Shown in pieces: positions 6,951-64,000 of a stretch of DNA of 64,000 nt. The translations under genes and the position numbers were made by a program. The stretch is from Cyanidioschyzon merolae (lineage: Eukaryota): assembly GCA_000091205.1 (NCBI GenBank), contig AP006498.2; one strand, written 5' to 3'. The notes under the pieces are model-generated. The model saw nothing but the letters and a program-made list of their open reading frames with translations. It was not told the origin of the DNA and did no database searches. Within the stretch, counting starts at the first letter, position 1. Each line of letters starts with the position of its first letter.

Positions 6951-7814
6951 CTAGTTTCAGGGACAACTGGAGGAAGCGCTACTTCCCAGCGAACGCGAAA
7001 CCTGGCCCGGGGTTTGCTAAAAGATGATATTTGGCTTCGAGCTCGATATCCAAAAGCGCTTGCCGGGTGTTAGGTTGCCGTCTCGACGAGAGCAGGGGCC
7101 CGTCGTCCAAACTATGATCAAACCGCGAGTGATAAGCAGAAGATAAAGGTATCAGTGAGCTAGATGCTAGTTAAGAGAAGCAGCTCTTTTCTAGCGTTCA
7201 ATACAACTCGTTGTGATCACTATACGGTAAAGCTATTTTGCGGGCTACCGACAGAACACCAGAGACAGCTTCTTCAAAGCGTCCAGCACGCCATGTCGGG
7301 TGGAGTACGAGACACACCTACTGGTGAACTAGATGACGTATATCTGAGGCAGCTGTTCCCTTGCGTTTGTGCTGTGGTTACTGGTCATCTACCGACGGGC
7401 TCTCTAGTGACAACACCCAGTCGCATAGCAATTCGCCACGGCGCTACGCTCAAGGTAATCGTCGATGGATTCAGGTTTGTTGCTCCCCCTGCAGAGGGTA
7501 ATTCGATGCTACTTTGCGGCGGATAGCAGGAGATCGACATCAACAAGTAATTTTCCATATAGATCACAGGCGAACTACCAGTAGGATAGATGCTTCATTG
7601 TGCAGTGCAGTGAAGACTGCAATCCTTCTTCAGGTAAGTAATACTATAGTACTCAGATGCATGAGGGACACTGAAAGAAAGATGTGTACGAGCACTGCGC
7701 CAAAAACCGGTATTCTTAAAGACTGCTTGCTCTCAACGTTATGAAAACGACCCGATGATCATCCGACGAAAAGCAAAAGCGACGATCGTAGCCGCCAAGG
7801 CCTCTCTGTTTCTT

Positions 7815-8450
7815 AATAGCTTGTTCGCGTTGTCTTGAAAACACTGGTGTACAATCGCAAAAAAAGTCCTAGTTCAAGAAAGGACCTCTTCTACCGAAAT
7901 CGCATCTGCTATAGCTTTTCTGGGACTCAGCAATCGTTATTCAGTACAAGAAGGTCGGCTTGTTTTTCAGTCGACGAGACGTCCTTTGCACGAAACGGTC
8001 TGAACTTGGATGGGTATTCCGAGAGGGGCAGCCCGCTGCATGTGCGATTGAACTCGAGGAGAACGGCTGAATCACCTATTCTAGATGGAGTGGATTCATT
8101 TAGCGGCCTCACATTTGCTCGTAGAGAAGGTCCGGACAGCAGCACCAACCCTTTGTCGAATCACTGAATACTTTTCCCCTGACGTCTGGCGACGGTCTTC
8201 CATTCGAAAACGCGGTATTTCATCGTTCCCCATGCGTTCACGCTTCTGCGGATCCTCTCGGATAGAGCTACTTTTCGATCCTCCGTACGCTGTGTGGTTC
8301 AGTCGCATCGAAGGATTATTTTCTACTGTGAAACCTAATGATCGCTCCACTGGGCGAGTCGCTAGATCCTTCAGCACATGATGACACACCGGTGCACGTG
8401 TCGTGTTTCGTCCGCAAGTCCTTCTCGCTCCATGAAGGCGCTCGCCTATG
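7815..8450 (+). repeat. dispersed repeat family R2, copy a
   Basis: Nucleotide homology to 36005..36340, e.g. ttttctactgtgaaacctaatgatcgctccactgggcgagtcgctagatcc versus ttttctattgtggaaagtaatgatcgctccgctgggcgagtaagtagatcg. Copy a carries an extra insert of about 190 bp. Confidence 0.6.
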
Positions 8451-8816
8451 GGCACAAAGAAGCTCTTTTGCTTCTAAAAATAAAAAATCTACGGGAAATG
8501 TTTGAACATGCGAGTTTAGGATCCAAAAAAGCCATCACCGCCGGGTTCGACAAAAAACCAGAGAGCAAATCCTCTTCTCGCCGACCACGCAGCGAAGAAG
8601 AGCAAATGACGAAGAAGAGGAGAGATAGGCGAGGAAACTGTTTGCCTGATGTGGTGATGACGAGTCTGTAATGGAGCATCGGGCACGAGTTCTAGAAATC
8701 CTTGCACTGCTGAGTTCAACCAGCGGCAACATAAGTATGGATTTTGTCAGCCGAGAGTTCAACACCGACATGCATATCACACGGTATGCGGTGCTGAAGA
8801 AGAGACCCAAGTAGCT
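8378..8816 (+). pseudogene. degenerate Fanzor/TnpB-like C-terminal remnant (third, diverged lineage)
   Basis: Translation of 8671..8816 gives MEHRARVLEILCTAESTSGNISMDFVSREFNTDMHITRYAVLKKRPK. This aligns with the family C-terminus [49 protein letters not shown]. The RuvC-III motif is degraded (NRDFNAAINI becomes SREFNTDMHI). Confidence 0.5.
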
Positions 8817-9299
8817 TACGCAATCAAACTTCGTGGACCAGCCTCTGATGCTTGACATGTGATTCGATAAACTGAGACCGATACCAGGCGGCCGGTCCAA
8901 AGAGGCAGGGAGGCGACTGCGCGAAAGTAGATATATATACCATCCATCGACGTGCAACGTTATTCGTTTTAGAGAGTATACATTCGATACTGGACGCTCG
9001 CGACTGATGATTCGTTCACAAGGTCATGCCGAAAGCTCACAGAACTTGCCGCGTCAAATATTCGATTCCGTTAGAAAGACAACTGATATGCATTTTGTGA
9101 CGATTGACGAAATCGAGCACGCCAGCAGGATATTACCGCTCACGGGATATGCCCACAGAACCTGTGTCTCTTCCGTTTCCGCGGAAAAGAGTCTTGGACT
9201 CCGACATCAGTCATCTCAGCGATCGCTTCCAGCAGGGCATGCGACAGCGCAGCATGCGAAAGGGGGAATCGACGGACTGGAATTTCATGACTTGGCCTC

Positions 9300-13106: not shown

Positions 13107-13790
13107 TGTGCTGGATAGAAAACGTACATTGACCATTCATCGTTGATTCCGTGATTAGATATTGGCATTCGGTGAACGCATCCATCATGGTGCACGCTAC
13201 CTTCAAGTTCCATGACTTGTACTTTTTATCGGATGTACTGGTTATTTCGTACGTTCTATTGTGCACCGAGGCTGCCTTGATGGTCAGCAAAAGTGCCTGT
13301 ACCGATGATTCGAATGCTGCGCAGAGACTGCGAGGCATTGCCATATGACTGAGGACGTCAGCTGGAGGTATCGTTCACCCGACACGGCATCGGGATTCAT
13401 GATCATTCTGGAAGCTGGAAAGCCGTGCAGAAAGGCCTGCTGCCTACTGCCTGCGGCAGCGCGAAGCGGTATGCTCGGAGACGATCGGGTCTCGGGCGAT
13501 GTCTAGATGCATCCTGTTCGCTGCTCTTCTCAGCGTAATCTTCGTTGCAGACGTTCTGCTCAGATCTCTCTTCAGCACCCGACACTATAGATGCCTACAA
13601 AGTACAATCACCGTTGACTCGTCCGTCTCTAGGGCGCTTCCGCTTTGGCGATAAACTTTCGTAAATACGGAGAACGTTTCCCTGTTAAAATGGCTACCGT
13701 AGATTGCCAGAGGGATTCTCTTATCTGGTTGCTCGTTGGTGGTTCGATTCCGTTCTCTTTTGAATTTATTATGTAAGGAAAACGCCCGCT
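13107..13790 (-). repeat. non-coding dispersed repeat (~650 bp), copy A
   Basis: Reverse-complement match to copy B and copy C over about 650 bp. Its forward-strand 3' end reads ...gttggtggttcgattccgttctcTTTT, a tRNA T-loop-like GGTTCGATTCC followed by a T-run. Confidence 0.85.
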
Positions 13791-14634
13791 CATCTCCGAG
13801 TTCTACCGCTCTCCATGATAGAATGCTCTGCAGCTGAGACGCTTCTATATGTTGTCGAAAACACGTGGTGTCTCGCATTCATTTACGACAATGCAAGACG
13901 GCAGCAACCGTTGCAGAAATCGCCAAACAAGCATATCTCTCTGCTGGAAGGAATGAGTCCGATTCCTCGTTCGCTGCACGAGTTCAGGCTCAGATCGCAT
14001 CTCACTTGAAAGACAGCACGGGACTGTGACAGCCACTCGTGAAATGCCTGCACAGCAGTGCAGTGTTGTGCCATGATTTTTCTGATAGGCCAGGATGTCC
14101 ATAGGTACTCGTCACAGCGTGGATGTTCTCTTCTGGTTTGCCTGATGCATGAGCCCGACACAAGGATGCACAGACGGAGCGCGCTCGGCCGAAGCAGCGA
14201 ACCTCTGATTGACCCGAAAAGAAGCTAGCAAGACATGCGATTACATGCACACAGTCGCATTTTTGTGCATGTTCTTCGAGGCGCTCAGCGCAAGTCGCGG
14301 GCAGGGAGATGTTCGCACTCTTGAAAGTCGGGCCCGTACATGGTGAGGTTTTTGGTCGTGCCCTGGCGGCCCGCACTTGAAAGGCATCTCTCGGATGGGC
14401 GATTAAGTCTCGCATGAGCGCCGGTGCCGAAACGATCAGGTTTTCGTCTGCGGGTCCCATCGCTAAAGCAAAAAGGAAACTCTCTGGAATTGTATCAATC
14501 TACAATATACTGTTCATTTAAGAATCTATCCAACTTCTGAACACGCCATTGCCGAAACAAATAGGTTCTTCAGCTGGCGAGTGCAGTGCGTAGAAGCGAA
14601 TCCGGTCAACAATGAATGCGGAACGCATAGAAGA

Positions 14635-15265
14635 ACGGAATCGAACCACCAACGAGCAACCAGATAAGAGAATCCCTCTGGCAATCTACGGTAGCCATTT
14701 TAACAGGGAAACGTTCTCCGTATTTACGAAAGTTTATCGCCAAAGCGGAAGCGCCCTAGAGACGGACGAGTCAACGGTGATTGTACTTCGTAGGCATCTA
14801 TAGTGCCGGGTGCTGAAGAGAGATCTGAGCAGAACGTCTGCAACGAAGATTACGCTGAGAAGAGCAGCGAACAGGATGCATCTAGACATCGCCCGAGACC
14901 CGATCGTCTCCGAGCATACCGCTTCGCGTTGCCGCAGGCAGTAGGCAGCAGGCCTTTCTGCACGGCTTTCCAGCTTCCAGAATGATCATGAATCCCGATG
15001 CCGTGTCGGGTGAACGATACCTCCAGCTGACGTCCTCAGTCATATGGCAATGCCTCGCAGTCTCTGCGCAGCATTCGAATCATCGGTACAGGCACTTTTG
15101 CTGACCATCAAGGCAGCCTCGGTGCACAATAGAACGTACGAAATAACCAGTACATCCGATAAAAAGTACAAGTCATGGAACTTGAAGGTAGCGTGCACCA
15201 TGATGGATGCGTTCACCGAATGCCAATATCTAATCACGGAATCAACGATGAATGGCCAATCTATA
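14635..15265 (+). repeat. non-coding dispersed repeat, copy B (inverted partner of A, ~845 bp spacer)
   Basis: Begins agaacggaatcgaaccaccaacgagcaaccagataagag... and is near-identical to the reverse complement of A. It diverges from A/C at its distal end (~15250). Confidence 0.85.
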
Positions 15266-15927
15266 CGCTTTGTCAAACAAAAAACAATAGAAATGAATCC
15301 GCTTACAGCGAGGATCCAGCGCAGACGCGTCGCCCTACCGCCATCATATTCCACAATTGTGTATCATTGTCCAAGATACCGAGCAGCCGGAACAGAGGCC
15401 TCCTCCCGAGCCTTTCGCACCGCCTTGGCGCGACGGCTTTTTGAAGACCAGTATTCCAGCCGCAGCACCTGCTGCGTTTGCCCAGAGAGCAGCAGCCGTT
15501 CCGTGTGTGTGCCCTTTCTGGTTTCGAACGCTGTATTGAAGCACATTTTACGCACTCCACAGGGAAACAAGTGTCAAAAGCGCGTGTTGCACTATCAAGT
15601 ACGGTTCGTTGCCTGCGACGCAACGCTAGGTACAACGCTGCGCCTTTGCTCCGTGGCGCAGTGTGCAGCCTGCGAGCCTGTGCGCCTTGTGCACAGTCTG
15701 TGCACTCGTTTCGAGACTATCCAAGCGCGTGCTCAGCTGAGCGTAGAAGGAAGAATAAGTTTTCGTGGCATAGGTAGCGCATTTCAAAGGTTTGGCGCGG
15801 AACCGAAAGACGCACGGGGCAATCGCCGCCTCTGCTGGCCGGAAAACCGTCATGAAAAGCAGGTTGTGCTGCGGGAACGGCGAATCAGAAATAAGTTGGG
15901 TTCCACTTCGAGCTCCGTGGTGCGAAT

Positions 15928-27734: not shown

Positions 27735-28011
27735 GGTACTCAAACGTAAATCGTCTGTTGCATACTATGCTCAAGATCAGCAAGAAAATAGTGGTTCAAC
27801 GCACAGCGCGTTCGTGCTCCTGCACGCTCTCCAAGTCGAGCGCTCTGAACGAGGCGGCACCTCCGGCTCGCTCGTGATGCGCGTTAACGTTCGAGCGGCG
27901 GTTTCGTGCACGCCCGACACCGCACCATCAACGCCGCTCTAAAGTCGAACGACTTCGGGCGTGTACAGTAGTGGCGGCAACCGTGCCCTAGACTTAAAGT
28001 CTCCAACTGAA

Positions 28012-29092
28012 GTGCAGACGCTTCCTAGGCTTTCTGGACCGGGCACTCACTACTGCTTCCAACTTGTTCTCATATAGTTCGAATTTGAGAGATTGTCCAA
28101 TAAAGTTCATTCTTGTCCGCTCTGGAGGTCTCGTCTCCAGCGCTGCACATCTGCTTATATTGATAGCGGCATTAAAGTCGCGATTCACGAATTCCATGCG
28201 TTTCGTGCCATCATTGGTTGTACTTACCAATGCAAGGAGTCCACGAACTTTCGCCCTCCTTTCCATTTGCTCCTCCGTCAGCGGTCCATACTTTTTTATA
28301 TCTTCAGGGCTCCGCTGTCACTTTTCCATCTCCACTCTCTGAAGTGTACACCCCAGTTCATGCTGTGTATAGGACGTTCGGAACACATCTATCGGTATCG
28401 TGACGAAACGCCGTGCACACTCTTTGTACGTTCTTGTCGTTGGAGCTGGTGTACACCCTTTTTGGGTCTTCCATCGCCCTGCTCCGTACGCGACTACGAG
28501 CGTCTGACTGTCATCCTCCTTCAAGGCGCTCAACTCATTGAAAAAGTTCGCGAACGCCCGCTGTTTCCCACAGTATAGATTCATGCGCAGACGAGCCGGC
28601 CGGGGCTTTGTATATTCTTCCCACAGCGCATCCCAATGCGCAAACCGATCTTCTATGAATTTCCGAAAAGCTGTAAAGCCCGCTCCTCGGCTCGTCACCT
28701 CGCTCATAGCTTCCAGGTGATCTTTCATTCCTGAATTCCACGTACAAATTTTCTTCCTCGCATTCATTATACCGGATCCTCGATAGCATCTTGCTCTCGA
28801 GAACCTCAAAAAGACGCATATCTTTCTGACGTAAGTTACCATCAGTCCCATCTTCCGCACACTTTGGTACAGCGATGGTTATGATATTCGTATTCCCAGG
28901 GTCCACGCCAACGACAAAGTCGTTATCCTGCACCTCCTGCATCGCAGGATCCCCATCATTCTCATCTACATCCTTCGCCGAGCCGTCTACAAGGTTGTAC
29001 TTTTCCACTTCCTGCGTCACAGAATCCGCGTCCTTCTCGTCTATATTCTTCGCCACGGGCGAAGCCGAAGACGGACCAGGAGACGGGCCCAA
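28012..29092 (-). mobile_element. Fanzor/TnpB-like element, copy 1 (5'-truncated, diverged subfamily)
   Basis: Minus-strand ORFs give FVVGVDPGNTNIITIAVPK (RuvC-I), VVAYGAGRW...[29 protein letters not shown]...[14 protein letters not shown], a single in-frame TGA, then [11 protein letters not shown]...EFVNRDFNAAINISRC (RuvC-III). The 3' terminus ...gcgtctgcac lies at 28012 (minus strand). Confidence 0.8.
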
Positions 29093-29999
29093 CGGCGCTG
29101 GAGGCGCAGAAGAACGCGTTTGCCGTTGGCATGGATCCCGGGAACACCCACATCGTTACCATCGCAGCACCCAAGCGTGAGGAAGATGGCTCTGACGGCA
29201 ACTTACGTCAGAAAGACATAAGTCTGTTGAAGCTCTCATGAGCGAGATATTACCGAGAATCCGGTATAATGAATGCAAGGAATAAAAGTGAGACATCGAA
29301 TTCAGGAGTGAAGGGAATTTGGAAGCGATCAGCCGGGTGACGAGCCGCGGAGCCGACATGGAAGCGTTTCGAGAGGCCATGAGCATTCACGCAGCTCATG
29401 ACGAAAGCCTTTGGAAAGAATGCACAAAGTTCAGGTGGGCTCGTCTGCGTATGAACCTGTACTGTTGGAAACAGCGAGCATACGCCAGCTTTTTCAATCA
29501 GTTGAGCGCCCTCAAGGAGGACATGAGCCAAAGGCTCGTAGTAGCATACGGGGCAGGTCGATGGATGCCCCAAAAAGGGTGTACACCAGCTCCAACGACA
29601 AGAACGTACAAGGAGTGCGCACATGGTTATGTCGAAATACCTTTAGATGAGTTTCGAACATCTTCTACACACCACGAGCTGTGTTGTACACTTCAGAGGG
29701 TCGCGATGGAGAAAAGCCAGCGGCTCGCTGACGGAAATGCAAATGGCAAGGAGGGCGAAACTTCGAGGACTACTCGCATTGGTTACTACAACTACTGATG
29801 GCAAGAAACGAATAGAGTTCGTGAATTGAGACTTTAACGCCGCCATCAGTGTAAGGAGGTGTGCAGTACTGGAAAGAAGACCCCCGGAGTTGGCGAGAGC
29901 CAACTTTGCGAGGCAACCTCCCAAAATGGAGTGATACCAGAAGAAGTTGAAACCAGTAGTAGGTGGCCAGTTGCTGAACGCCAGCACAGTCGTCTGCAC
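29080..29999 (+). mobile_element. Fanzor/TnpB-like element, copy 2 (5'-truncated, head-to-head with copy 1)
   Basis: AFAVGMDPGNTHIVTIAAPK ... [48 protein letters not shown] ... RRAKLRGLLALVTTTTDGKKRIEFVN then TGA then DFNAAISV, a stop inside RuvC-III. It ends ...cagtcgtctgcac at 29999 and is about 80% nt identical to copy 1. Confidence 0.8.
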
Positions 30000-30330
30000 A
30001 TCGATGGGTAGACATTCGGTCTACGGCGGACGGTGTGAGAAGCGCCACTCTTGTACACTGGCTTTCCAGCGTTTCTCTTTTGCAAGGCGTTTGGTGGTGT
30101 TTCCAGAGACGAATTGTTTATCAAAAACGTCTTCTGTCGATCTTCGAAACCAACGTGCTGCTTCCTCTGTGCGGCACGGGGCGTACGCTATGCGCTTTTC
30201 TGCTGATTGACAGCGGAAGCGACAAGTCCGGTTACTGCCTTGAAGACTTAGACGCTTTGGAGAGACCATCATATCGATGGTTTCAGTTTTCTGACCTCCT
30301 CCTAACCACCACGCTCGGATCTCTGTTGCA

Positions 30331-35353: not shown

Positions 35354-36004
35354 GAGGGCAGCGTGCAAGCAGAATTAGAGTTGCATATTGTTCGGTACCC
35401 GTGCACTGCGGTGCAGAGTATACGGACCACGAAGCATGAATATGGCAAAGAAGGTTCGTTTTTATGTACGGAGCGGTGCGTATGCGCATCCGCTCACACA
35501 CGTTCACAAGCCCCAAGTCGGATAGCTGAGGATTCCCAAACTGCACTGTACTGCACTGCCGTTCTTGGTCGTTCGAATTCTCTCCATCCAGAAACGCATC
35601 CCATACGGACGCTCGAGACGCTCTCTGCTCACCAGCGCAACTCCATGAGGCTCCATTCCTGCTATGCGTATTCGTATGCTATGTTGATGTGTATAGCAGA
35701 AGGTCGAGATGTAGAAGCAATGTGCTGTATAGATCGTAGTCGAATAGAATGTTAGATACATATTCTCTACTGAACAGTGCAAGGAGGACTGCATTCCTCG
35801 TTCAGGTACGGTTCACCACAGTATTCAGATGGACGAGGAGCACTGGACGGAAGACGTATATGCGCGCGGTGCCGATAACCGACATTTTCAGAGACTGCGT
35901 GCAGTCAATGGTAGCAAACCGCAACCCGTTGATCACTTTATGGGAATCAAAAGCGACGATAGTGGACACCAAGGGCGTCCCTGTTTCTCACCAGCTTGTT
36001 CGTT

Positions 36005-36340
36005 TAGTGCTAAAAACACTGGGATAGAGTCGCAAAAGAAATGTCCGATTTCACCCGTGGCCATCTTCCACCGAAATCGCAGCGGCAGCATTCCCAGTCC
36101 GTTGCGCTCGGTATGAAGCGCAGGAGAGTCGGTTTGTTTTCCCGATTCTAGCGCGGAGTAGAGCTGGTTTCCATTCCCCCGTAAATTCCAAGGTTGAAAC
36201 CCATTGAAAGAGTGTTTTCTATTGTGGAAAGTAATGATCGCTCCGCTGGGCGAGTAAGTAGATCGTTCAGCAAACGGTGACACACCGCGGCGCATGTTGC
36301 CGATCTTCCGCAAGTCCTTCTCGCTTCGGGAAGGTCCTCA
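36005..36340 (+). repeat. dispersed repeat family R2, copy b
   Basis: Homologous to 7815..8450 (aaaacactgg...ccgaaatcgca...atgatcgctccgctgggcgag...ccgcaagtccttctcgct). Downstream sequence contains a segment inverted relative to copy a. Confidence 0.6.
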
Positions 36341-36865
36341 ACTGACGGCCATCAGGGAGTGCGTTCATTTCCACCAGTAGAAATCCATGGGGAGGTATGA
36401 ACATGCAGGTCGGGGGTCCTTGAGGATTGCCATCGTCCCGTCTGTTAAACACCGTTTCTCGTTTATCTCCAGTCTTCTTCCGTTTCTTCGTCACCTGCTC
36501 TTCTTCGCTCGACGGTAGCTTCGAACAAGAAAATTTCGTTTGTTACTCGAACCTGGCGACACCGGGCTTCCAAAATCCCTAGTTGCACATCCATCGCCTT
36601 CAGCTGGATATTTTATTTTCTGAAATGAACCCAATTTCAACGCGTCTACTACAGAACGCAAAAAGGCATGTCACTAGGCGCACCTGCAGTTGGAACCGGA
36701 CTGCGTTGAGATGCTGAATAGGCGGCTTCGCATCGCTTGGGTGCGCGGCGCTGCCGTACTCGTACGTCACAAGGCAGAAAGACTGCGGACGACGCCCGAA
36801 ACATGCGACTGGAATCAAAATCTGGTGCCTTGTAACCGACTCGTAGGTATCGTGTAGCCTGGTTC

Positions 36866-38584
36866 ATGGCCCATAAACAGAAAGCTGGGTGTATTTCCGT
36901 GCTGAAGCGCGGTGTGGAAGCCGAGTTCGCAAAGCTCTTCCACGACGGCGACCTGGAAGCAGCCCGAACCGAGTTGAACGAGTCCGTTCGCGACCTCATC
37001 GTCTGGGAGCGTAACACCGTCTGGCGAGATATGTTGCTCCAGGAGCGTCGGCTTCGAGACACGCACGCCAAGCGAAGCGGCACCCGCGACTCGCCGTTTC
37101 GGGCGTTTCGAGTGGTTCCATTTCTCGTGGCGGTGGTGCTCTTTCTGGGCGTCCTCTTTGCACCGGCATCGCAGTTTATGTTTCTGCAGCGGGCGCTGGA
37201 AGAACGGGAAAATCAGGGTCACCCGATATCGGCAGCTGCCGCAGCTGCACGGAACGCAGCCGCCCAACGCTGCCTCGCGCTGGTCACGTTCGCGTCGGTA
37301 CTCTGGGCCACAGAGGCAGTGCCGCTATTCGTCACCTCGTTGGCAATGCCACTGCTTGCAGTCATTCTACGCGTATTCCTCGACGAGAAAGGTGAGCGGA
37401 CACTCGGACCGACCGAGGCTGCTCACAAGTCCATCACATCCATGAGCAGTCCCGTGCTCCTGCTCATTCTTGGCGGTTACAGTATTTCGGGAGCGCTCAG
37501 CAAGCATGCCATCGACAAGGCGGTAGCGATTGCAGTTTTGCGCCATGCGCGACGACCTCCAGAACTGCTGCTATTACTGATGCTTTTAGCGGTTTTCTTA
37601 TCGATGCTGGTATCGAATGTGGCGGCACCGGTATTGACGGTCGGTATTGTGACACCACTGCTACGCAGCTTGCCACCAGGGACTCCCTTTATCAAGTGTG
37701 CGCTGCTCGGTGTCGCCGCAGCTTGTAACGTAGGCGGCATGACCTCGCCGATCGCGTCTCCGCAGAATGCGATCGCGTTGGATGCCCTGCGCGGTGCCGC
37801 GTCCATCTCTTTTCGCCAATGGGTAGCGATAGCGCTGCCGCTTGCTCTGGTTACCGTATTTGTGATGCATGCGTACTTAATCGTTCGTTTTGGACGCGGC
37901 CCGATGCAAGCGTTTCCACTGATTCCTATGCATAGTCCGCTGAAATGGAAGGATACTGGGATGGCGCACTTGGTTGTCATTCTGACGGTTCTGGTCACTG
38001 TGGCGCTCTGGAGCAGCAAAACTGTTTCGGATCGATTCGGTGGGGACGGCATTGTTGCCCTCGTACCTGTGGTGGTGTTCATGGGCACTGGTCTTTTGAG
38101 CAAGGAGGATTTCAATGCGCTACCTTTTAATGTTATCTATTTGGTGTCCGGCGGCGTCGTGATGGGCGCTGCCGTTCGATCCAGCCGCTTGCTGGAGCTC
38201 GTGGCCGCATCCGTGCATTCCGCAGTGGTTGGCGCCGGCCTCTACAAGACCTATCTGACCTTTATGCTGATGACACTTCTTGTGGCGTGCATTATGAGCC
38301 ACACGGTTTCCAGTATCATTCTGAGTCCCGTTTTAGCCGAGCTTGGCGCAGCGCTTGGTCATCCACGGCTCATGGTGCTGGGAGGTGCACTGGCGTGTTC
38401 CTGTGCAATGGCACTGCCCGTGTCAAGCTTCCCGAACATGGCCGTGATCAGCGTCGAAGATGAGCTCGGGAATCCTTATTTAAGTGCTCGCGATTTCGTA
38501 TGGGTAGGCTTTCCTCTGACGTTGCTCGCGGGCGCAGCACTGGCGAGTCTCGGCTATGTGCTTTCGTTTTACGCTGGCCTGTGA
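36866..38584 (+). CDS. anion permease of the ArsB/NhaD/CitMHS (DASS/SLC13-like) superfamily
   Basis: ATG at 36866. About 12 predicted TM helices. Motif [22 protein letters not shown] (SNxAxP-type). Internally duplicated hairpin-like halves. Soluble N-terminal domain of about 70 aa. Confidence 0.75.
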
Positions 38585-38589
38585 GCGCC

Positions 38590-40092
38590 ACGACCAGCTC
38601 GCTATCCTGCATATGCTGCGTTGCAGGATCCGCCTGATCTTTTTCTGCACGATTCGTCACGGGCGATATCGAATACGGACCAGGACGATCCGCTTTCAAG
38701 CGCCGATAGTGTACACACATGGCTACGCCATCGGCTTCGATCATCCCAGTGAATACCTTTTGCTTGCTGGCTTTGAGACGCTTGAAGTCGAAGATATTCA
38801 TCCAGTGCGTCTCCCCGTTTTCACCGGTGAACTCCTCCGTGCTGACATCGAACTCCGGGCTGATCTCTCTCATGATCCCGTAAAGGACGCCGGAGTCGAT
38901 TGTCACAAAATGTGACTTGATGTTGCACAACGGAACGACGTTGAAGCGCTTACCCATTAGGAAAGCATCCCGTCTCTCCGACTTTTCATTTTTTCCCCGA
39001 CTCAGCTGCTCTTCGGCGTTGCGTTCGAGTTCTCGGTTCCGAAACAAGAAACAGCTTAGGATGACGGGATAACATCTTTTTTTCATTTCTGATACATTTT
39101 CTACGGGATTGACTGGCCCAAAACTGCACGGTGCTCCTGTATAGCCGCACGGATTACAGAAGCTTCATTTGTGCTGCTGTGTGACGTCTTCTTGTCGACG
39201 AATTCGATCTCCTGTCCACTCTGGCGATCGTTCGTGATACAATTGATGATGCCCCACATCCCTTTGCGCGAGATGCCCGGGTAGAGCGCAAAGATAGATC
39301 GTACCACGAAGCGTTCGAGGTTCACGGTCAGATGGTTCTTCAGGTTCGTCAGGTACTTCATGGGCACTTAGAACTAAATATTCGAGTCATGCCTGTATCG
39401 AGTACCGTTGAAGCGGTACTTGGGGCATTTTTCGTGGAGGGCATATACTCGCGCATTTCGCTTCTACGCTTCCCCCGTGCCAAACATCAAGTGACGAATA
39501 AAGGTCTTGTCGAAAAATTCTTCCGGAACCTCTTCTGTTTCCATGCCCGTCACGTCGCGATACATATCCCTCGCGATATGCATCAGTCCTACGGCAGCGT
39601 CTCATACACTCATAGAGTGCGCCTCGAAACGGGTTCTGATGGCCTCTTGGGGCTTTTCCCTGTGCGGTTCTTTGATGTGTTTCAGAAGACAGGCTTTCAC
39701 CAGCATCTCGTAATATGATCGTCTTTCTCGCATCCATTGACGTCGGGCATCCCGCTGTCGCTTCTTCGACCTGTCTCGTTCCGCTTTGCTCGGCTCTGGT
39801 TTTCATTTTTCTCCGGCAGCCGGCGACGCCGGGCCTCCAGCATCCTCCACTTCCATTTCCATTACTTTCCATTGCTATGATAAGAATGCACTTTGGAAGC
39901 GTCTACTGTAAACTACGAAAAATCACTTGACTAGAGTACTGTAAGGGCTGAAACACGAATGAATCGCAAGACTATACTTTGCTATGACGTCAACGCAAAT
40001 ACGACTTGAACCTAAAGTACAACAACAAGTTAGCGAATGATCAGGATCGCAATTCCCTTCAAAAGCGAGATACGCGTCGAGTCTGATGCCTT
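38590..40092 (-). mobile_element. Fanzor/TnpB-like element, copy 4 (5' part only; truncated at its 3' side exactly at the permease stop codon)
   Basis: About 97% nt identical to copy 3 (58360..59362) over 1.5 kb. Contains ORF-A MKYLTNLKNHLTVN... and the N-terminal 212 aa of the nuclease ORF (MKKRCYPVILSCFLF...KADRPGP). Homology to copy 3 stops at 38590, 6 bp after the transporter stop at 38584. The 5' boundary (gtctgatgcct) is shared with copy 3. Confidence 0.8.
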
Positions 40093-40824
40093 CCAGACAC
40101 AGACGTGAGCGTAACGACAGCATTAAATGGAACAAAGAATAGAAACTCACTACTAACTAGCAATCCGATAGGAATTTCGTTTCCCACTACGATCGACGTT
40201 AAAAGGGGGAAAAGCTTGCCGTATCTTCGAAGGTTGATCTTCGAGGTGGAAAGTCTCGCGAGCCGGACGAATCCCCAGTGCTTGTGCTTCGTGCTCCACC
40301 CAGAGTCAGGTGATTTGGCGAGATCTGAGCAACTAATCCACAACGCAGTTTATTCTCGAACTAGGGGCAGTTGATGTGCCTCTGGGCGTCGCCCTGGTCG
40401 CAGTGGACTCTTAGTATATTGCTGCGCGCTGCCGCAGACAGACGTACTGTCTGCGCAGCTTGCGGACTCCCAGAATGATGATGTACGCCGACTCCGTGTC
40501 GATTGCAACACATCTCGAGCCGACGCCCTCAGTGGTACGGAAAAACCGTTCTGTCTCCGTGCAGCACCCGCTTCAGCGGTATAAGCGCTACGGCGAGTGC
40601 TCACGGCAGGCAGTCGTCGCAGGATAGAACATACGAAACGACCAGCGTATCCCAGAGGAATTGTAAGTAATGGAACCTGGAAGTAGGGTGCAGCATGGTG
40701 GACGATCACATGAATCTTAAAGCCCATCCCGGATTTCGGACTCCTTGGTCCATGGAAACGTTTTGTCATCATAAGAGCAGGAAATCGCTGACAGCGTTGA
40801 CGTAGCAGGCGCCACGCACGTGCA

Positions 40825-43197: not shown

Positions 43198-43687
43198 AGC
43201 CAACACCGGCTCGCCTGGCTTTTGCGAGTGTTTCTGGAGCGTATGCCGCAGCACGAACTGCGCTGTCGTCTGAGCACTGAAGCCGCAAAGCACGAAGGCT
43301 AGTCGTGCGCGTCTCGGCCTGGGCGCTGGGTTCGTTTGGCGCAAAGCTCTAAGGATGCTTTGCGCAAGACCAAGCGAGTTTTCGTTATATGAACGCGGGT
43401 CGTCAGCTGTGCACACCAGTTACACCCGTGCTTCGTACCCAGTGACATAAAGCTATCGCTGGCGCCGCGCGGAGCGAAGAAAATTACCAGACGCGATGGC
43501 TCGTTGGTTGCAAACCAAGGCGCCCCGCACGCAGTTCCGGTGCTCTTACCAGCAGGCTATGTGGCACCCGCGCAGTTCGTGTGAACGCCGCTCGGGCAGG
43601 TTGCGCTGGGCGCCGAGCGCTGGCCACACCATGGGACGCAAGGCAGCTGCTGCGGTAGCGAGGCATCACCCACCGGCTATGGAGCAA

Positions 43688-43918
43688 CCGTACATGATCC
43701 CGCAGAATACAGATTGTTTGGCGCGCTTTTCTTGCTCACTTCGGCGCACGCTGATCAAATCAGGAACCGTACATGATCCCGCAGAATACAGATCTTTTGG
43801 CGCGCTTTTTTTCGCTCACTTCGGCGCACACTGATCAAATCAGGAACCGTAAATGATCCCGCAGAATACAGATCTTTTGGCGCGCTTTTTTTCGCTCACT
43901 TCGGCGCACGCTGATCCA
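43688..43918. repeat. tandem repeat, ~80 bp unit x3
   Basis: ccgtacatgatcccgcagaatacagat(t/c)ttttggcgcgc(t)ttttt(c)gctcacttcggcgcacgctgatcaaatcaggaa repeated three times. Confidence 0.7.
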
Positions 43919-53840: not shown

Positions 53841-54558
53841 CCCCGGGTACGGGTACGGGTGCGGAAGCGGAGCAAGTCTTCAACTGGAGCTGTGTGTATC
53901 CGTCTAGTCTGCGTTCCAGGCGATGAAGCAAGCGTTCAAGCGCCACAGAATGGCGCGCGCTGAGATACAGGTATGATGGACAAACGGGAGCACCTGCGTA
54001 TATTTCATGGACACCGCTGCAATGAGCGCACCAAAGCTCTCTACAAAGAACATGAAAACGGCAAGCAAAATGCAGATCGCTAGTTCCGCTCATGGAAGAA
54101 CTTCGTTTATGACTGTTGAAAGCAGTAAAGTCGGAACTCTGTTGCCGCCATCATCATCCGTCGAGTGCCGACGCTGCAGCTGGAGGGACGACAGTGATCC
54201 GCGACTTTCAAGCCAAATACAAGCGGAAGCGAACGGGAACAGTTGCAGCAACATCCCGTCAAGGCTGCTGCTCATGGCTCTGGGACGAGATCCGACCATC
54301 ATGGGTCTGAAAACCCGTGTGACCGAAGTGCACCCGTCCCATGTTTCGAACATGGCTGCCGTGCAACACTGCTGTTTGGGAGCGCAGTGTCTGCTTTTTT
54401 TGGTTAATGGCAGCAAGCGCACATTCGCGATAAACCATGCTGGGCTCGTTCATCAGACATCATACAGAATATTCGCCACTATCCGTTTGCGGAGGATTCG
54501 CCAGGATCGCAGAACTGCGGTTCATTGATGCCGACCGAGTCGTCTCTATACAAATCGC

Positions 54559-54836
54559 GGCATTCTAAAATGCTCTTTGTCGAGTATAGCTCCATTTCAG
54601 GATTTCATTCGTATGCTGGATCATGACGGCATCCTAGCATGCTCTTTGTCGAGTATAGCTCCATTTCAGGATTTCATTCGTATGCTGGATCATGGCGGCA
54701 TTCTAGCATGCTCTTTGCCGAGTATAGCTCCGTTTCAAGGTTACAGCAGTTTGCTGGATCATGACGGCATTCTAGCATGCTCTTTGCCGAGTACAGCTCC
54801 GTTTCAGGATTTCATTAGTCTGCTGGATCATCGTCC
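54559..54836. repeat. tandem repeat, 69 bp unit x4
   Basis: ggcattctaaaatgctctttgtcgagtatagctccatttcaggatttcattcgtatgctggatcatgac repeated four times with increasing divergence. Confidence 0.75.
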
Positions 54837-56838: not shown

Positions 56839-56954
56839 GGCGTCCAGTATGTCAGCTTCGAGAAGCGCAATGGCGCTGAATGAGTGCTTGCATCTGGAGC
56901 GTCGGGAACGCGGCGAGAACGTTCCGCGAACACACAGGGTAAATGGGTACCGAC

Positions 56955-59362
56955 GTGCAGACGTCTCCCAGTGTTTTTTGACCGGCCATCTACTACTGCC
57001 TCCAACTTATTCTCATCTAGTTTGACTTTGAGAGGTTGTCCAACAAAGTAGGCTCTCGACAGCTCGGGAGGTCTTTTTTCTCCATCACCACACATCTCCT
57101 GATATGGATAGCAGCATGAAAGTCACGATTCACAAACTCGATACATTTCTTGCCGCCGATGGTGGTTGTACTCAGTAATGGAAGGAGTCCTCGAACTTTC
57201 GCCCTCCATTCCATTTGCTCTGCAGTCAAGGCTCCGTACGTTTTTATATAACCTCAGGATTCCGCTGACACTTTTGCATCTCGACCCTCTGAAGTGTGCA
57301 CCGAAGCTCTTGGTGTATAAACGATGCTCGGAACTCATCTATGGGTACTGTGACAAATCGCCTCGCACACTCCGGGTACGTTCTTGGCGTTGCAGCTGGT
57401 GTGCTCTCTTTTTTCGACCCCCAGCGCCCTGCTCCGTATGCTACGACCAGCCTCTGACTTTCATCTCCTTTGAGGGCGCTCAACTCATTGAAAAAGTTCG
57501 CGAATGCACGCTGCTTCCCACAGTACAAGTTCAGACGCGGACGAGCCCGCCTGGGCATTGTATATTCTTTCCACAGCGCATTGCCATGAGCAACGCGAGT
57601 TTTGATGAATTCTCGAAAAGCTCGAAAGTCCGCTCCACGACTGGTAACATCGCGAATAGCTTCCAGGTGCTGTTTCGTGCCTGGATTCCATTTCTCAATT
57701 CTCTTCCTCGCACTCGTGAATCCCGATTCTCGATAGTATCTCGCCCTCGAGAACCTCAAAAGACGCATGTCTCTCTGGAAAAAGTTACCGTTGATACCAT
57801 ATTCCGCACGCTTGGGTACAGCGTTGGTTATTGTAGTCGCGTTCTCCGGGTCCGCGCCAACGACAAACTCGTTCTCCTGTACCTCCTGCGTCGCGGAATC
57901 CGCCTGATCGTTTTCTGCACGATTCGTCACAGGCGATATCGGAAACGGACCAGGAGGATCCGCTTTCAAGCGCCGATAGTGTACACACATGGCTACGCCA
58001 TCGGCTTCGATCATCCCAGTGAATACCTTTTGCTTGCTGGCTTTGAGACGCTTGAAGTCGAAGATATTCATCCAGTGCGTCTCCCGGTTTTCACCGGTGA
58101 ACTCCTCCCTGCTGACATCGAACTCCGGGCTGATCTCTCTCATGATCCCGTAAAGGACGCCGGAGTCGATTGCCACAAAATGTGACTTGATGTTGCACAA
58201 CGGAACGACGTTGAAGCGCTTACCCATTAGGAAAGCCTCCCGTCTCTCCGTCTCTTCATTTTTTCCCCGACTCAGCTGCTCTTCGGCGTTGCGTTCGAGT
58301 TCTCGGTTCCGAAACAAGAAACAGCTTAGGATGACGGGATAACATCTTTTTTTCATTTCTGATACATTTTCTACGGGATTGACTGGCCCAAAACTGCACG
58401 GTGCTCCTGTATAGCCGCACGGATTACAGAAGCTTCATTTGTGCTGCTGTGTGACGTCTTCTTGTCGACGAATTCGATCTCCTGTCCACTCTGGCGATCG
58501 TTCGTGGTACCATTGATGATGGCCCACATCCCTTTGCGCGAGATGCCCGGGTAGAGCGCAAAGATAGAGCGTACCACGAAGCGTTCGCGGTTCACGGTCA
58601 GATGGCTCTTCAGGTTCTTCAGGTACTTCATGGGCACTTAGAACTAAATATTCGAGTCATGCCTGTATCGAGTACCGTTGAAGCGGTACTTGGGGCATTT
58701 TTCGTGGAGGGCATGTACTCGCGCATTGCGCCTCTACGCTTTCCCCGTGCCAAACATCAAGCGACGAATAAAGGTCTTGTCGAAAAATTCTTCCGGAACC
58801 TCTTCTGTTTCCATGCCCGTCACGTCGCGATACATATCCCTCGCGAGATGCATCAGTCCTACGGCAGCGTCTCATACACTCATAGAGTGCGCCTCGAAAC
58901 GGGTTCTGATGGCCTCTTGGGGCTTTTCCCTGTGCGGTTCCTTGATGTGTTTCAGAAGACAGGCTTTCACCAGCATCTCGTAATATGATCGTCTTTCTCG
59001 CATCCATTGACGTCGGGCATCCCGCTGTCGCTTCTTCGACCTGTCTCGTTCCGCTTTGCTCGGCTCTGTTTTTCATTTTTCTCCGGCAGCCGGCGACGCC
59101 GGGCCTCCAGCATCCTCCACTTCCATTTCCATTACTTTCCAGTGCTATGATAAGAATGCACTTTGGAAGCGTCTACTGTAAACTACGAAAAATCACTTGA
59201 CTAGAGTACTGTAAGGGCTGAAACACGAATGAATCGCAAGACTATACTTTGCTATGACGTCAACGCAAATACGACTTGAACCTAAGGTACAACAACAAGT
59301 CAGCGAATGATCAGGATCGCAATTCCCTTCAAAAGCGAGATACGCGTCGAGTCTGATGCCTG
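56955..59362 (-). mobile_element. Fanzor/TnpB-like element, copy 3 (near full length, ~2.4 kb)
   Basis: 5' boundary shared with copy 4 (gtctgatgcct). 3' terminus ...gacgtctgcac at 56955 is shared with copies 1 and 2. Encodes ORF-A (58371..58634), the nuclease ORF 57244..58356 (MKKRCYPV...[20 protein letters not shown]...VVAYGAGRW...[19 protein letters not shown]...[15 protein letters not shown]), then frame-shifted segments [38 protein letters not shown] (57017..57229) and ...RPPELSRAYFVGQPLKVKLDENKLEAVV (third frame). AT-richer than the flanking host genes. Confidence 0.8.
57017..58634 (-). pseudogene. Fanzor/TnpB-like RuvC nuclease coding region of copy 3 (frame-disrupted or spliced)
   Basis: RuvC-I-like G-A-D-P-E at ~57850. 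TnpB-like 'V.P.D.F.R-S' motif before a Cys/His cluster. Ruv[14 protein letters not shown]. At least two frame discontinuities relative to copy 1. Confidence 0.7.
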
Positions 59363-59467
59363 CCAGATATGGAGATGCGGGTATCGACCGCGCTATATAG
59401 AAAAATAGGGAGAGATACTAGCCCCTAACCAGCAACTAGATAACAGTTTGCTCCCGCTCCACGGAAA

Positions 59468-60055
59468 GCATTGAAAGAGGGAAACGTTCTCCGTATTTAC
59501 GAAAGTTTATCGCCAAAGCGGAAGCGCCCTAGAGACGGACGAGTCAACGGTGATTGTACTTTGTAGGCATCTATAGTGCCGGGTGCTGAAGAGAGATCTG
59601 AGCAGAACGTCTGCAACGAAGATTACGCTGAGAAGAGCAGCGAACAGGATGCATCTAGACATCGCCCGAGACCCGATCGTCTCCGAGCATACCGCTTCGC
59701 GCTGCCGCAGGCAGTAGGCAGCAGGCCTTTCTGCACGGCTTTCCAGCTCCCAGAATGATCATGAATCCCGATGCCGTGTCGGGTGAACGATACCTCCAGC
59801 TGACGTCCTCAGTCATATGGCAATGCCTCGCAGTCTCTGTGCAGCATTCGAATCATCGGTATAGGCACTTTTGCTGACCATCAAGGCAACCTCGGTGCAC
59901 AATAGAACGTACGAAATAACCAGTACATCCGATAAAAAGTACAAGTCATGGAACTTGAAGGTAGCGTGCACCATGATGGATACGTTCACCGAATGCCAAT
60001 ATCTAATCACGGAATCAACGATGAATGGTCAATGTACGTTTTCTATCCAGCAAAA
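59468..60055 (+). repeat. non-coding dispersed repeat, copy C (same family as A/B)
   Basis: gggaaacgttctccgtatttacgaaagtttatcgccaaagcgg...caatgtacgttttctatccagca is about 97% identical to B and to the reverse complement of A. It lies about 105 bp outside the 5' end of Fanzor-like copy 3. Confidence 0.85.
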
Positions 60056-60513
60056 ATATATCGGTAATAGGCGAGCGCTTCTGTAGCACTTGTGGCGGTA
60101 GTGAGGCGCACAGGGCTGAGCGCTCGCATGGGATGCACGCACTTGTCACACATCTGCTGGCGATGCCCTCAACCAACCAACCATCCAGCCAGCCAGCCAA
60201 GCAGGCGGGGGCAGCAGCGGGTGTTGTGCTTTCGTGCTGCCCGCGGTGCATAACTCACATACACCAGGGACGCTCGATCAAACTGCTCGTCTGGCTCACC
60301 GCGCCCAGACGCTGCAGTGACCAGAGTGCAACGCTTTCGGAGAGGTGTCGCACGGCAGACTCGGAGTTCGCTGCTCCTGCGGGCGACGACACCCGCCCGG
60401 GTGCTAGCGACGATACCGCTGCCGCAGCGCTATCCCGAATGATCATCACGACACCCGCATCTCCGTTCCTTACTTTTGTCCAGGGCATTAAAACCGAGGT
60501 TTACGTTCGATAG

Positions 60514-63399: not shown

Positions 63400-63884
63400 G
63401 AGACGAGCCTATGCTATGGAGAGAGCGCGTCGAACAATATACGAGCGATATCGTTCCGAAATGCGGACGCTTATTACAGAATCGACGGCCGCTCGTCTCA
63501 CTCAATGGGCCTCTATGCAAAACATTCTAGACCTGCATGTGGTAACGCAATGAGGCGCGAAGCGCTGTGCGGAACAACGTTACCGGCGAGCACGCGGATA
63601 GCGGCACCCGCGGCGGCGATGCAATTTCGGGATCGCCTGCGAATTATTACACGAACAGGGTCGTTGAGCATCTTGCTCATCATCGAAGCGTTCCTCGTGG
63701 CTGCCCGTTCACAAAGTCTTGGATGCTGCTCGTAGACAGCGTCGCCGTCCATCACTCTAAAGCGGTCGAGGAGTTCGTGGCTGAGACTGGCGTTGAGCTG
63801 CTCCTCGTGCCAGCCGATTCCCGCTGGCGCAAACCGGTCGAAGGCAGCTTCTCTGTTGTCGAGCGTTATTCTTACATTCGTTGA
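63400..63884 (+). pseudogene. Tc1/mariner-type DDE transposase remnant
   Basis: ...PANYYTNRVVEHLAHH...WMLLVDSVAVHHSKAVEEFVAETGVELLLVPADSRWRKPVE resembles the Tc1 DDE_3 tail (DNAxxH...V..F....G...L.LP.YSPDLNPIE). Frame breaks lie upstream. Confidence 0.45.
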
Positions 63885-64000
63885 TCAATGGGCGAGCCAT
63901 TCACATCTATGACACGCTGCATCGACATGTCGTTCTATACTGCCTTTATCGGCCCGGAGCTGCTCTTTCACGCTTCTGCTCGTGCGCAGCGGAACGGAAG

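Follow-up and report, generated by a model that had tools for sequence, protein, structure and literature searches.

Repeat copies in the window

The DNA analysed here (the window, 64,000 nucleotides) comes from the CMP chromosome of the red alga Cyanidioschyzon merolae 10D, and four of its open reading frames match exactly the C. merolae 10D proteins BAM81689.1, BAM81691.1, BAM81692.1 and BAM81697.1. Copies of a repeat family, assigned below to the published transposon CMe-1A, were located by self-BLAST and by tblastn with a full-length family protein (P0009). An earlier sequence-only reading had placed the repeats at five sites; the family was found at all five, with wider limits than that reading had given, and a sixth remnant had been missed.

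Among the CMe-1A elements of the window, copy 5 (56949..60062, minus strand, 3.1 kb; end at ~60062 by self-BLAST) is the most complete, and it is a pseudogene. Residues 3-748 of P0009 are distributed over four tblastn HSPs in three frames, with four in-frame stops and at least two frameshifts. The disrupted Fanzor1 coding region (57053..59060) contains the RuvC-I motif (57832-57867), the sequence VVAYGAGRW with Gly at the position of the canonical RuvC-II Glu (57421-57447), the alternative-Glu motif (57322-57354) and the RuvC-III motif (57101-57139), all on the minus strand. On the same strand the core starts with a short GC hairpin, AGCGCGGTCGATACCCGC (59380..59402), placed by an anchored comparison of ~80 loci and by alignment, and is preceded by a 5' module (59427..60062) equivalent to the ~635-bp element TE-N2_CMe and 96% identical to both solo copies in the window. 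The final ~85 nt of the 3' tail are absent from copy 5, where the tail profile matches 56949-56977 only.

Copy 4 (38585..40704, minus strand) consists of a divergent 5' module and the N-terminal Fanzor codons 3-406; the whole RuvC half and the 3' tail are missing, and its end abuts the stop codon of the host gene 36866..38584. Copies 2 and 3 are both 5'-truncated and lie head-to-head. Copy 2 (27924..29092, minus strand) retains a RuvC half with one stop and one frameshift, displaying the RuvC-I motif FVVGVDPGNTNIITIAV (28868-28918), VTIPIDVFRTS (28372-28404) and the RuvC-III motif EFVNRDFNAAINI (28156-28194), together with a complete 3' tail (27924-28034, minus strand). Copy 3 (29093..30096, plus strand) has two stops and two frameshifts, and its tail extends from 29988 to 30096 on the plus strand. 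Copy 1 (8378..8850, plus strand) has suffered an internal deletion that leaves the Fanzor 5' start (~8480-8640) and a C-terminal relic (8662..8850) with DFVSREFNTDMHI at 8740-8778, both on the plus strand. It lies directly downstream of a pseudogene of a DDE_3 (IS630/Tc1-mariner-type) transposase (7550..8375) in the same, plus-strand orientation, recognised with DDE_3 proteins of giant viruses as tblastn queries (E 1e-8 to 2e-11) and, for the ORF at 8085-8378, by Pfam DDE_3 (E = 0.016); this relic is 70% identical to positions 1508-2489 of a metagenome locus, L068. The sixth remnant (35670..36450, plus strand) likewise passes from a DDE_3 relic into the start of a Fanzor unit, which is then truncated.

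Every window copy is a pseudogene, either truncated or carrying stops or frameshifts, and none is functional. In none of them does an ORF run unbroken across the full set of domains, and of copy 1 and the 36-kb remnant only fragments are left; among 80 sampled loci, just one (L025, with protein P0009; start codon tentative) is open across all domains. The three motifs quoted in the sequence-only reading are all present in copies 2 and 5. As regards their reading frame, in no window copy do all three share one, whereas they do fall in a single ORF in the open relative. The frame is broken between RuvC-I and the remaining motifs in copy 2 and before RuvC-III in copy 5, and this split is the result of decay. 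The element is, as had been noticed, AT-richer than its surroundings (GC of 0.50-0.51 versus 0.59-0.61 in the flanks). A search for empty sites among near-identical metagenome contigs revealed the same structure as the window at 10 of 10 loci, with no empty site.

A pair of copies had been described as about 97% identical, which holds for copies 4 and 5 (the third and fourth when counted from zero). Segments 38617-40120 and 57887-59390 display 90-100% identity per 100 bp, mostly at least 95%, while the other copy pairs are 71-78% identical by self-BLAST. This likeness had been taken as a sign of recent mobility, a conclusion that is unsafe: both copies carry the same four in-frame stops and the same frameshift, and their 5' modules are 56-73% identical, identity falling exactly at the core/5'-module boundary. 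Since the disruptions are shared and the 5' modules look unrelated, the pair appears to have been duplicated or gene-converted when already dead, and its 97-98% identity is therefore no evidence of recent autonomous mobility. A recent transposition of an active element would fit the high identity across 1.5 kb, and the 96-99% likeness among TE-N2 copies implies that something in the system was recently active; however, copy 4 is without its entire 3' half including the tail, and neither copy has both termini whole, as a newly inserted element should, so that together with the shared lesions this explanation is quite improbable. The comparison instead points to copying, or homogenisation by gene conversion, after inactivation, and illustrates how a repeat identity of 97% can arise when a pseudogene is duplicated or gene-converted. 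The C. merolae genome is known for efficient homologous recombination. The region at ~57854-57901 was also considered as a recurrent transposition breakpoint and rejected: it falls within the acidic tandem repeats, a variable stretch of the ORF, and the apparent breaks arise because DNA alignments fail there. The truncation of copy 4 at the equivalent region is real nonetheless.

Fold and catalytic site of the encoded protein

The intact CMe-1 element has a core of ~2.75 kb, often with a ~635-bp module of TE-N2 type at its 5' side, and encodes one intronless protein of ~750 residues with a basic N-terminus, REC/WED regions and a split RuvC domain. The sequence-only reading had anticipated exons that would need joining; the ORF is intronless in intact relatives and there are none to join. 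It had also placed RuvC-I near the N-terminus, while the motif actually lies at about residue 484 of 752, some 430 N-terminal codons (58371-59060) having been missed. The N-terminus displays basic clusters that may represent a nuclear localisation signal, MPPKGKRKK..GKKRPDRAVKKAKR in the relative P0111 (44% identical) and KKNRKGDALRRRRQERQ in P0009. In the P0009 model a disordered acidic tandem-repeat insert of ~85 residues immediately precedes RuvC-I.

The expected Pfam matches to OrfB_IS605 and the OrfB zinc ribbon did not materialise. When window ORFs, a stitched 470-residue reconstruction and full-length homologues were scanned, no OrfB/TnpB model matched at threshold, the best being PF07282 (E = 0.23) on the NRDFNAAINI motif. 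Likewise, phmmer with the reconstruction and a shallow 13-sequence profile returned only noise from the PDB. A 114-sequence alignment was needed for the profile search to succeed, and it then identified Parasitella PpFz (PDB code 9cf0; E = 4.2e-19), SpuFz (8gkh; 4.9e-11) and Guillardia GtFz (9cer; 0.009).

The AlphaFold model of P0111 (pLDDT 91, pTM 0.88) has SpuFz as its first Foldseek match (9ceu; E = 9.7e-18, TM 0.65/0.72), followed by PpFz and GtFz and then by Cas12f. The model of P0009 (pLDDT 84), the open copy, retrieves PpFz, SpuFz and GtFz at E values of 1e-15 to 3e-13. The structural comparison that had been proposed as a check came out in favour of the family being Fanzor-like, both the open copy and its 44%-identical relative matching SpuFz, PpFz and GtFz first. 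The predicted architecture is WED-REC-RuvC, and the top seven PDB matches of both models are Fanzor1 chains. ISDra2 TnpB (8H1J/8EXA) resembles the RuvC half distantly in structure (8h1j; E = 0.03, probability 1.0, for P0009). SpuFz1 (8GKH, 9CEU-9CEZ), PpFz and GtFz1 share the same overall fold with the CMe proteins at a sequence identity of only 12-16%, and the acidic tandem-repeat insert (~85 residues) sets CMe-1A apart from all three.

Profile alignment and the predicted models establish the Fanzor1 homology and fold of the family, and with the catalytic-residue alignment described below they bear out the original proposal of an element present in several copies and carrying the gene of a Fanzor/TnpB-like RuvC nuclease. 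Assignment to the TnpB of IS200/IS605/IS607 or to Fanzor2 was considered and rejected, as there is no adjacent recombinase in the loci examined, no Pfam match at threshold, and the best structures are those of Fanzor1. No TnpA Y1 or serine recombinase was found beside the Fanzor gene among called genes and Pfam labels in those loci, all outside the window. Unlike the bacterial IS200/IS605 TnpB systems, CMe-1A is without TnpA, encodes a protein of twice the length and has another residue in place of the canonical RuvC-II Glu; its host is eukaryotic and its location nuclear.

Three residues, D398, G536 and E569 (P0111 numbering), are invariant among the 114 homologues and D636 is conserved in at least 90% of them. 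In the HMM alignment the conserved D/E/D residues align with residues 777, 935 and 1000 of the SpuFz1 chain, which with an MBP offset of 394 correspond to SpuFz1 D383, E541 and D606. The RuvC-I Asp, D398, is therefore equivalent to D383 (motif DPx) and is present in copies 2, 3 and 5. At RuvC-II, G536 in VVAYG and E569 in VDEFRT lie 33 residues apart, E569 corresponding to E541. Such a rearranged RuvC-II, in which the canonical Glu becomes Gly or Pro and an alternative conserved Glu lies downstream, has been described for Fanzors (PMC10530073), and SpuFz1, PpFz and GtFz1 display the same catalytic D/E/D with the relocated Glu in a DE[FY][RK]TS motif. At RuvC-III, the Asp of NRDxNAAxNI, D636, is equivalent to D606; the RD is degenerate in copy 1 (SRE) and interrupted by a stop in copy 3 (NRD to N*D). 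The predicted active site of the family is formed by the Asp in GxDPG, with Gly at the canonical RuvC-II position, the Glu in VDEFRTS and the Asp in NRDxNAAxNI.

The Fanzor/TnpB signature (Bao & Jurka, PMC3627910) includes a C4 zinc finger that follows the TS motif and precedes the RD. This finger is not conserved in the CMe clade, whose consensus TTxVxxxDxxxLxxV...RGLLWC has one common Cys. In the CMe copies the site reads THHELGC...EKC, and β-strands are still predicted in the segment. SpuFz1 has CxxC...CxxxxC after the TS motif, of which no more than His-His-Cys and a further Cys are kept in the CMe clade. With these zinc ligands lost, the family fits the strict signature less well, while its assignment by fold is unaffected.

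Identity with CMe-1A

The features described above agree with those of CMe-1A, a transposon carrying Fanzor1 that was reported from C. merolae by Bao & Jurka (2013, Mob DNA 4:12, PMC3627910) as an element of ~3 kb with ~150 copies ~80% identical to the consensus. It has no TIRs, and its 5' 635 bp are 95% identical to TE-N2_CMe, itself present in ~70 copies (PMC3627910). The same survey lists one Fanzor1 family for the C. merolae genome and left the transposon class of CMe-1A as 'unknown' (PMC3627910). CMe-1A and the window copies share the genome, the length of ~3 kb, a Fanzor1 ORF and the lack of TIRs, and in both the 5' ~635 bp are a separately repeated element (95-96% identical). On each of these points the window element agrees with the published description, and no feature contradicts membership of the window copies. 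We conclude, with a probability of about 0.9, that the window repeats are decayed copies of CMe-1A.

The sequence-only reading had suggested that the family may be uncatalogued, and this suggestion falls, as CMe-1A with its TE-N2_CMe 5' module was published for C. merolae in 2013 (PMC3627910). A new family might have been argued from the absence of a Pfam match, from homologues labelled only PF26935/DUF8286 and from a literature search on DUF8286 that found no paper mentioning that domain. However, the family of Bao & Jurka 2013 agrees in length, copy number, divergence, absence of TIRs and the TE-N2 5' module, and the window is from C. merolae 10D, while rhodophyte Fanzors were also counted by Jiang et al. 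2023; novelty is hardly credible. Fanzor1 in C. merolae is already known, so that the Fanzor call was correct but not new, the family having been described in this genome in 2013. As a discovery it carries little weight: Fanzor biochemistry and structures are established, the C. merolae Fanzor1 is published and the window copies are dead. What the exercise illustrates is that a Fanzor can be recognised from three short motifs by a reader without tools. The open copy, P0009 (L025), provides a candidate Fanzor1 of thermoacidophilic origin, which would be of practical interest only where editors that tolerate heat or acid are sought.

Several observations go beyond the description of CMe-1A, namely a 112-nt 3' tail that is conserved and ends in a hairpin, no fewer than five alternative 5' modules, TE-N2 copies beside cores in either orientation, and DDE_3 relics upstream of some copies. 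Handles for classifying the element are thus available in the hairpin of the tail, in the variability of the 5' modules and in the DDE_3 relics, whose order matches that in the giant-virus relatives.

Element ends and possible modes of spread

Among the 80 sampled loci, almost every one that continues beyond the ORF carries the conserved 112-nt 3' tail, which ends in a hairpin of 8-12 bp (mean MFE -11.3 kcal/mol, z -1.9), 2-4 nt before similarity stops. A tail of ~100 nt is also found on sequences that have no ORF (L036, L071, L075, L083, L095 and L099). RNAalifold on 43 tails predicted three pairs and no covariation, and a hand-drawn three-helix structure (81% paired) performed no better than shuffled tails, its column-wise covariation not exceeding that of shuffles. 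Column counting is defeated because the terminal hairpin occurs in two registers. As covariation does not rise above shuffles, the tail may serve transposition as a signal at the DNA level and not be an omega RNA. Rfam, at the gathering threshold, had no match in the whole window.

The 112-nt tail is nevertheless the best candidate for both the RNA scaffold and the right end of the element. By analogy with SpuFz1, PpFz and GtFz, the Fanzor protein would bind an omega/fRNA transcribed from the 3' end of the element, its guide would read into the flanking DNA, and the complex would cut matching double-stranded DNA beside a TAM; in TnpB systems such guided cutting helps the element persist. RNA guidance, the identity of an omega RNA and the mode of transposition are all inferred for CMe-1A. 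Like CMe-1A, IS200/IS605 elements lack TIRs and have subterminal hairpins, and they provide the paradigm of a guide RNA encoded at the 3' end. Spu-1 elements, in contrast, carry 30-nt inverted repeats, while CMe-1A has none; the absence of TIRs that had been proposed was confirmed by negative TIR and ATIR searches.

At the other end of the element, at least five unrelated repeated 5' modules are joined to one conserved core and tail (~80 loci), and all module classes converge at the core-start hairpin (59380..59402). TE-N2 also occurs alone in the window as two convergent copies, a left arm at 13110..13756 (BLAST 13106-13756, plus strand) and a right arm at 14632..15268 (BLAST 14632-15263, minus strand), 99.2% identical and separated by an 875-bp spacer. 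The left arm is bounded by a candidate 17-18-bp direct repeat (13093-13109 and 13757-13774). The pair was considered as long TIRs of a larger element and this was rejected, the arms being independent copies that stand beside cores in either orientation. ARAGORN found no tRNAs, so that the B-box-like motif GGTTCGATTCC at the 3' end of TE-N2 belongs to none that can be detected.

These ends could reflect spread through the 3' end by a copy-out route, either retroposition in trans by a LINE enzyme or a rolling-circle process like that of Helitron2, with the tail serving as a recognition signal and not as an omega RNA. The assortment of 5' modules on a single core and tail, the 5'-truncated copies 2 and 3 that keep the tail, the ORF-less sequences with the same ~100-nt tail, and a terminal hairpin in an element without TIRs are all in keeping with such a route. 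So are the candidate long imperfect flanking duplications around TE-N2 and L056. Helitron2 elements that carry Fanzor1 have hairpins at both ends and duplications of 7-19 bp; in CMe-1, hairpins occur at the core start and at the 3' end. We nonetheless consider copy-out unlikely, as complementarity between the ends is no higher than in shuffled controls (5.7 versus 5.8), none of the sampled sequences joins the tail to a RepHel or reverse-transcriptase element, TE-N2 is without the tail although no other component is as young, copy 4 has lost its 3' end, and the candidate duplications are T-rich and few. A 9/10 match between the class-A 5' terminus and the tail hairpin was noticed post hoc.

The DDE_3 relics suggest another origin, in which CMe-1 is, or descends from, an IS630/Tc1-mariner transposon with Fanzor1 as passenger and the CMe-1A copies are its transposase-less derivatives. 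Twice in the window (7550-8375/8378-8850 and 35670-36450), a DDE_3 pseudogene immediately precedes a Fanzor remnant of like orientation, and L068 displays the same order with a collinear junction. On giant-virus-like contigs (L005 and L009), the Fanzor genes of two distant relatives are each preceded by an intact DDE_3 gene at a distance of 10-33 bp. The order DDE_3 then Fanzor on one strand is common to these contigs, the window relics and L068, and Fanzor1 in Tc/mariner elements is documented (PMC3627910). Unlike those giant-virus pairs and the Tc1/mariner Fanzor1 elements, the window relics are dead and no TIRs or TA duplications were found with them. More broadly, there are no TIRs around the DDE_3-Fanzor units examined or the CMe-1 cores, most CMe-1 copies carry no transposase, and two other relatives have no DDE_3 neighbour. 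Among the 80 sampled loci, a DDE_3 relic immediately precedes the core in L068 alone, a second weak match (L077) lying on the opposite strand ~1.4 kb upstream, and the adjacency could reflect a composite spread as one unit by another route. On this balance a DDE_3 ancestry is a possibility that we hold to be a minority one.

For CMe-1A itself, to which we assign the window copies, we offer only a tentative and somewhat doubtful history. The element may descend from a composite of DDE_3 and Fanzor1 of the giant-virus type, and/or may have spread by means of the 112-nt tail, which is also found on ORF-less elements and perhaps acts in trans as an omega-RNA and right-end module.

Fanzor repeats and their encoded protein

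Comparison of the window with itself and tblastn searches with a full-length family protein bore out the dispersed repeat at all five places named by the sequence-only reading. The largest copy, copy 5, previously placed at 56955-59362, extends from 56949 to ~60062 (3.1 kb) with its gene on the minus strand. Copy 4 (38585-40704) consists of a 5' module followed by Fanzor codons 3-406, without the RuvC half, copies 2 (27924-29092, minus strand) and 3 (29093-30096, plus strand) are 5'-truncated, and copy 1 (8378-8850) is a fragment. The cores, the conserved part of the element downstream of the 5' module, share 71-78% identity with one another, and the element is AT-richer than its surroundings, as proposed (GC of 0.50-0.51 versus 0.59-0.61 in the flanks). 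Copies 2 and 3 meet head to head at 29092/29093 and form a 2.2-kb diverged palindrome (27924-30096; arms 73% identical), both breaking in an acidic tandem-repeat region just before RuvC-I. Four intergenic tandem arrays, at 21214-22070 (97 bp x 8.8 copies, 98% identical), 54558-54831 (69 bp x 4), 43686-43916 (80 bp x 2.9) and 3995-4161 (84 bp x 2), are unrelated to the Fanzor element.

Single-sequence searches were uninformative, with no Pfam match and only noise from phmmer against the PDB. A homology search with the reconstructed protein retrieved 162 relatives, nearly all metagenomic; a second, with the most distant full-length relative (P0111, 44% identical), revealed a large family of 580-730-residue proteins, and an exhaustive profile search gave 1,880 clusters at 50% identity. 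Against solved structures, a 114-member profile matched Parasitella PpFz (E=4e-19), Spizellomyces SpuFz (E=5e-11) and Guillardia GtFz (E=0.009), with no meaningful match beyond the solved Fanzor1 chains. AlphaFold2 models were obtained for P0111 (pLDDT 91) and for P0009, the open copy of the subfamily present in the window (pLDDT 84; insert 383-469 disordered). The top Foldseek hits of both were seven Fanzor1 chains (E of 1e-13 to 1e-17, TM up to 0.65/0.72), with Cas12f, other Cas12 types and ISDra2 TnpB far behind. The conserved D398, E569 and D636 (P0111 numbering) align to the metal-coordinating D383, E541 and D606 of SpuFz1, while the canonical RuvC-II position holds an invariant glycine; such a rearranged RuvC-II site is a reported Fanzor feature (PMC10530073). 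The C4 zinc finger that formed part of the original Fanzor/TnpB signature is not conserved in the CMe clade. Profile matches, modelled folds and catalytic alignment thus show the call of a Fanzor/TnpB-like nuclease to be right in substance.

Just before RuvC-I lie ~19-residue acidic tandem repeats (..KHEEKKEA..TQKVQDNDLVVDA..) of variable number in the family (P0009 383-469; locus L003 7122-7370), predicted to be disordered (pLDDT ~30), the final one providing the strand that bears the catalytic Asp. Clade relatives labelled only DUF8286/PF26935 (L005, L009, L104-L109) are common in metagenomic contigs, of which at least L005 and L009 resemble giant-virus genomes (D5 primase, Herpes_ori_bp, RNA polymerase subunits; contigs up to 560 kb).

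Relation to CMe-1A and decay

Four ORFs of the window are identical to annotated C. merolae 10D proteins (CMP locus tags) encoded on a 908-kb chromosome. Matched by published description, the window repeats correspond to CMe-1A, the one Fanzor1 family listed for C. merolae by Bao & Jurka 2013 (PMC3627910). That family has ~150 copies, ~80% identical to a ~3 kb consensus, lacks TIRs, has undeterminable target-site duplications (TSDs) and was left without a class; its 5' 635 bp are 95% identical to TE-N2_CMe, a separate ~70-copy element (PMC3627910). The length of copy 5 and the divergence of the cores are similar, and copy 5 segment 59427-60062 is 96% identical to solo repeats at 13106-13756 and 14632-15263. 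As the window anatomy fits this description, the family, thought possibly uncatalogued, has been known since 2013; rhodophyte Fanzors were also included in later surveys.

Every peptide motif quoted initially was found in the window. The three RuvC motifs belong to one intronless ORF in open relatives, while in each window copy they are split over two reading frames, which reflects decay. RuvC-I lies mid-protein rather than near the N-terminus, since ~430 N-terminal codons had been overlooked. Copy 5 is interrupted by four in-frame stops, has two or more frameshifts and retains no more than the initial 29 nt of the 3' tail; copy 4 shares all four stops and a frameshift with it, and copies 2 and 3 contain stops and frameshifts besides their truncation. 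The 97% identity taken as a sign of recent mobility is correct for 38617-40120 versus 57887-59390, if copies are numbered from zero. However, these copies, 4 and 5, share their lesions, and their 5' modules are just 56-73% identical whereas their cores are mostly 95-100% identical; the pair therefore appears to have been copied or homogenised once already dead, and does not show recent autonomous mobility. Judged by its sequence, the element is non-functional in this window. Among 80 family loci fetched from metagenomes containing a C. merolae-like genome (99.3-99.6% identical), only L025, the locus of P0009, is open through all domains, in agreement with the 2013 remark that a few CMe-1A copies are still intact (PMC3627910). 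The original observation is confirmed and its interpretation right in substance, although an element already known, and dead here, is of low interest as a discovery.

Window 4807-15260 of C. merolae 10D has counterparts of 99.3-99.6% identity and unchanged repeat structure in contigs L014-L023, which come from various public metagenomes (JGI, ENA, Logan). Strains nearly identical to 10D, or else reads derived from cultures, are thus widespread in such data sets.

Element ends and possible mode of spread

The 112-nt 3' tail, the terminal hairpin, the varied 5' modules and the DDE_3 relics constitute anatomy beyond the published CMe-1A description. Almost every sampled copy reaching beyond the ORF has the conserved tail; within the window it is complete only in copies 2 and 3. 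It begins within the last codons, holds two short hairpins and a box, GCCACTACTGTACAC, and ends in an 8-12-bp hairpin of two sequence versions (mean MFE -11.3 kcal/mol, z -1.9), similarity ending 2-4 nt beyond. Covariation tests in the tail were not significant. By homology, an intact protein would act as an RNA-guided double-stranded DNA endonuclease with a Fanzor-type RuvC site, its guide RNA being transcribed from the element 3' end and reaching into the flank; the tail is the obvious candidate scaffold.

The same tail occurs on a few ORF-less sequences. Extra ~100-nt tail copies (L036 369-469, L071 1375-1463, L075 1026-1136, L095 678-779, L099 420-521) precede some Fanzor cores by ~1 kb and themselves follow non-Fanzor sequence, representing either ORF-less elements that share the tail or a tandem arrangement of elements.

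A short GC hairpin marks the start of the conserved core, and preceding it are at least five mutually unrelated modules, each itself repeated. In agreement with the reported lack of TIRs, terminal or asymmetric inverted repeats did not exceed shuffled controls. Upstream of cores, TE-N2-like sequence is found in both orientations, and some copies have it downstream as well, which makes TE-N2 an element in its own right and not a fixed part of CMe-1. The two solo TE-N2 copies (13110-13756, plus strand; 14632-15268, minus strand) are 99.2% identical and point towards each other across an 875-bp spacer. Of these, the left one lies between imperfect 17-18-bp direct repeats, CTTTTGTGATTTATTGT (13093-13109) and CTTTTGAATTTATTATGT (13757-13774), a candidate TSD; in 2013 none was reported for TE-N2_CMe, nor could TSDs be determined for the related CMe-1A (PMC3627910). 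The TE-N2 3' end has a B-box-like GGTTCGATTCC, at which ARAGORN found no tRNA.

A DDE_3 (IS630/Tc1-mariner-type) transposase has left three decayed pseudogenes on the plus strand, at 7550-8375, 35761-36271 and 63714-63917. The first two lead collinearly into the beginning of the Fanzor unit, as does the relic at metagenome locus L068. The same order, DDE_3 then Fanzor, is seen in the giant-virus-like contigs L005 and L009, which hold two distant relatives whose Fanzor gene directly follows an intact DDE_3 gene. Two other relatives examined have no upstream DDE_3, and a Tc1/mariner-derived origin of the element is a tentative, rather doubtful proposal. Spread by a 3'-end-dependent copy-out mechanism seems less probable still, and the two are not mutually exclusive. 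The DDE_3 relics match the repeat pair 7501-7904/8259-8438 and 35670-36081/36154-36334.
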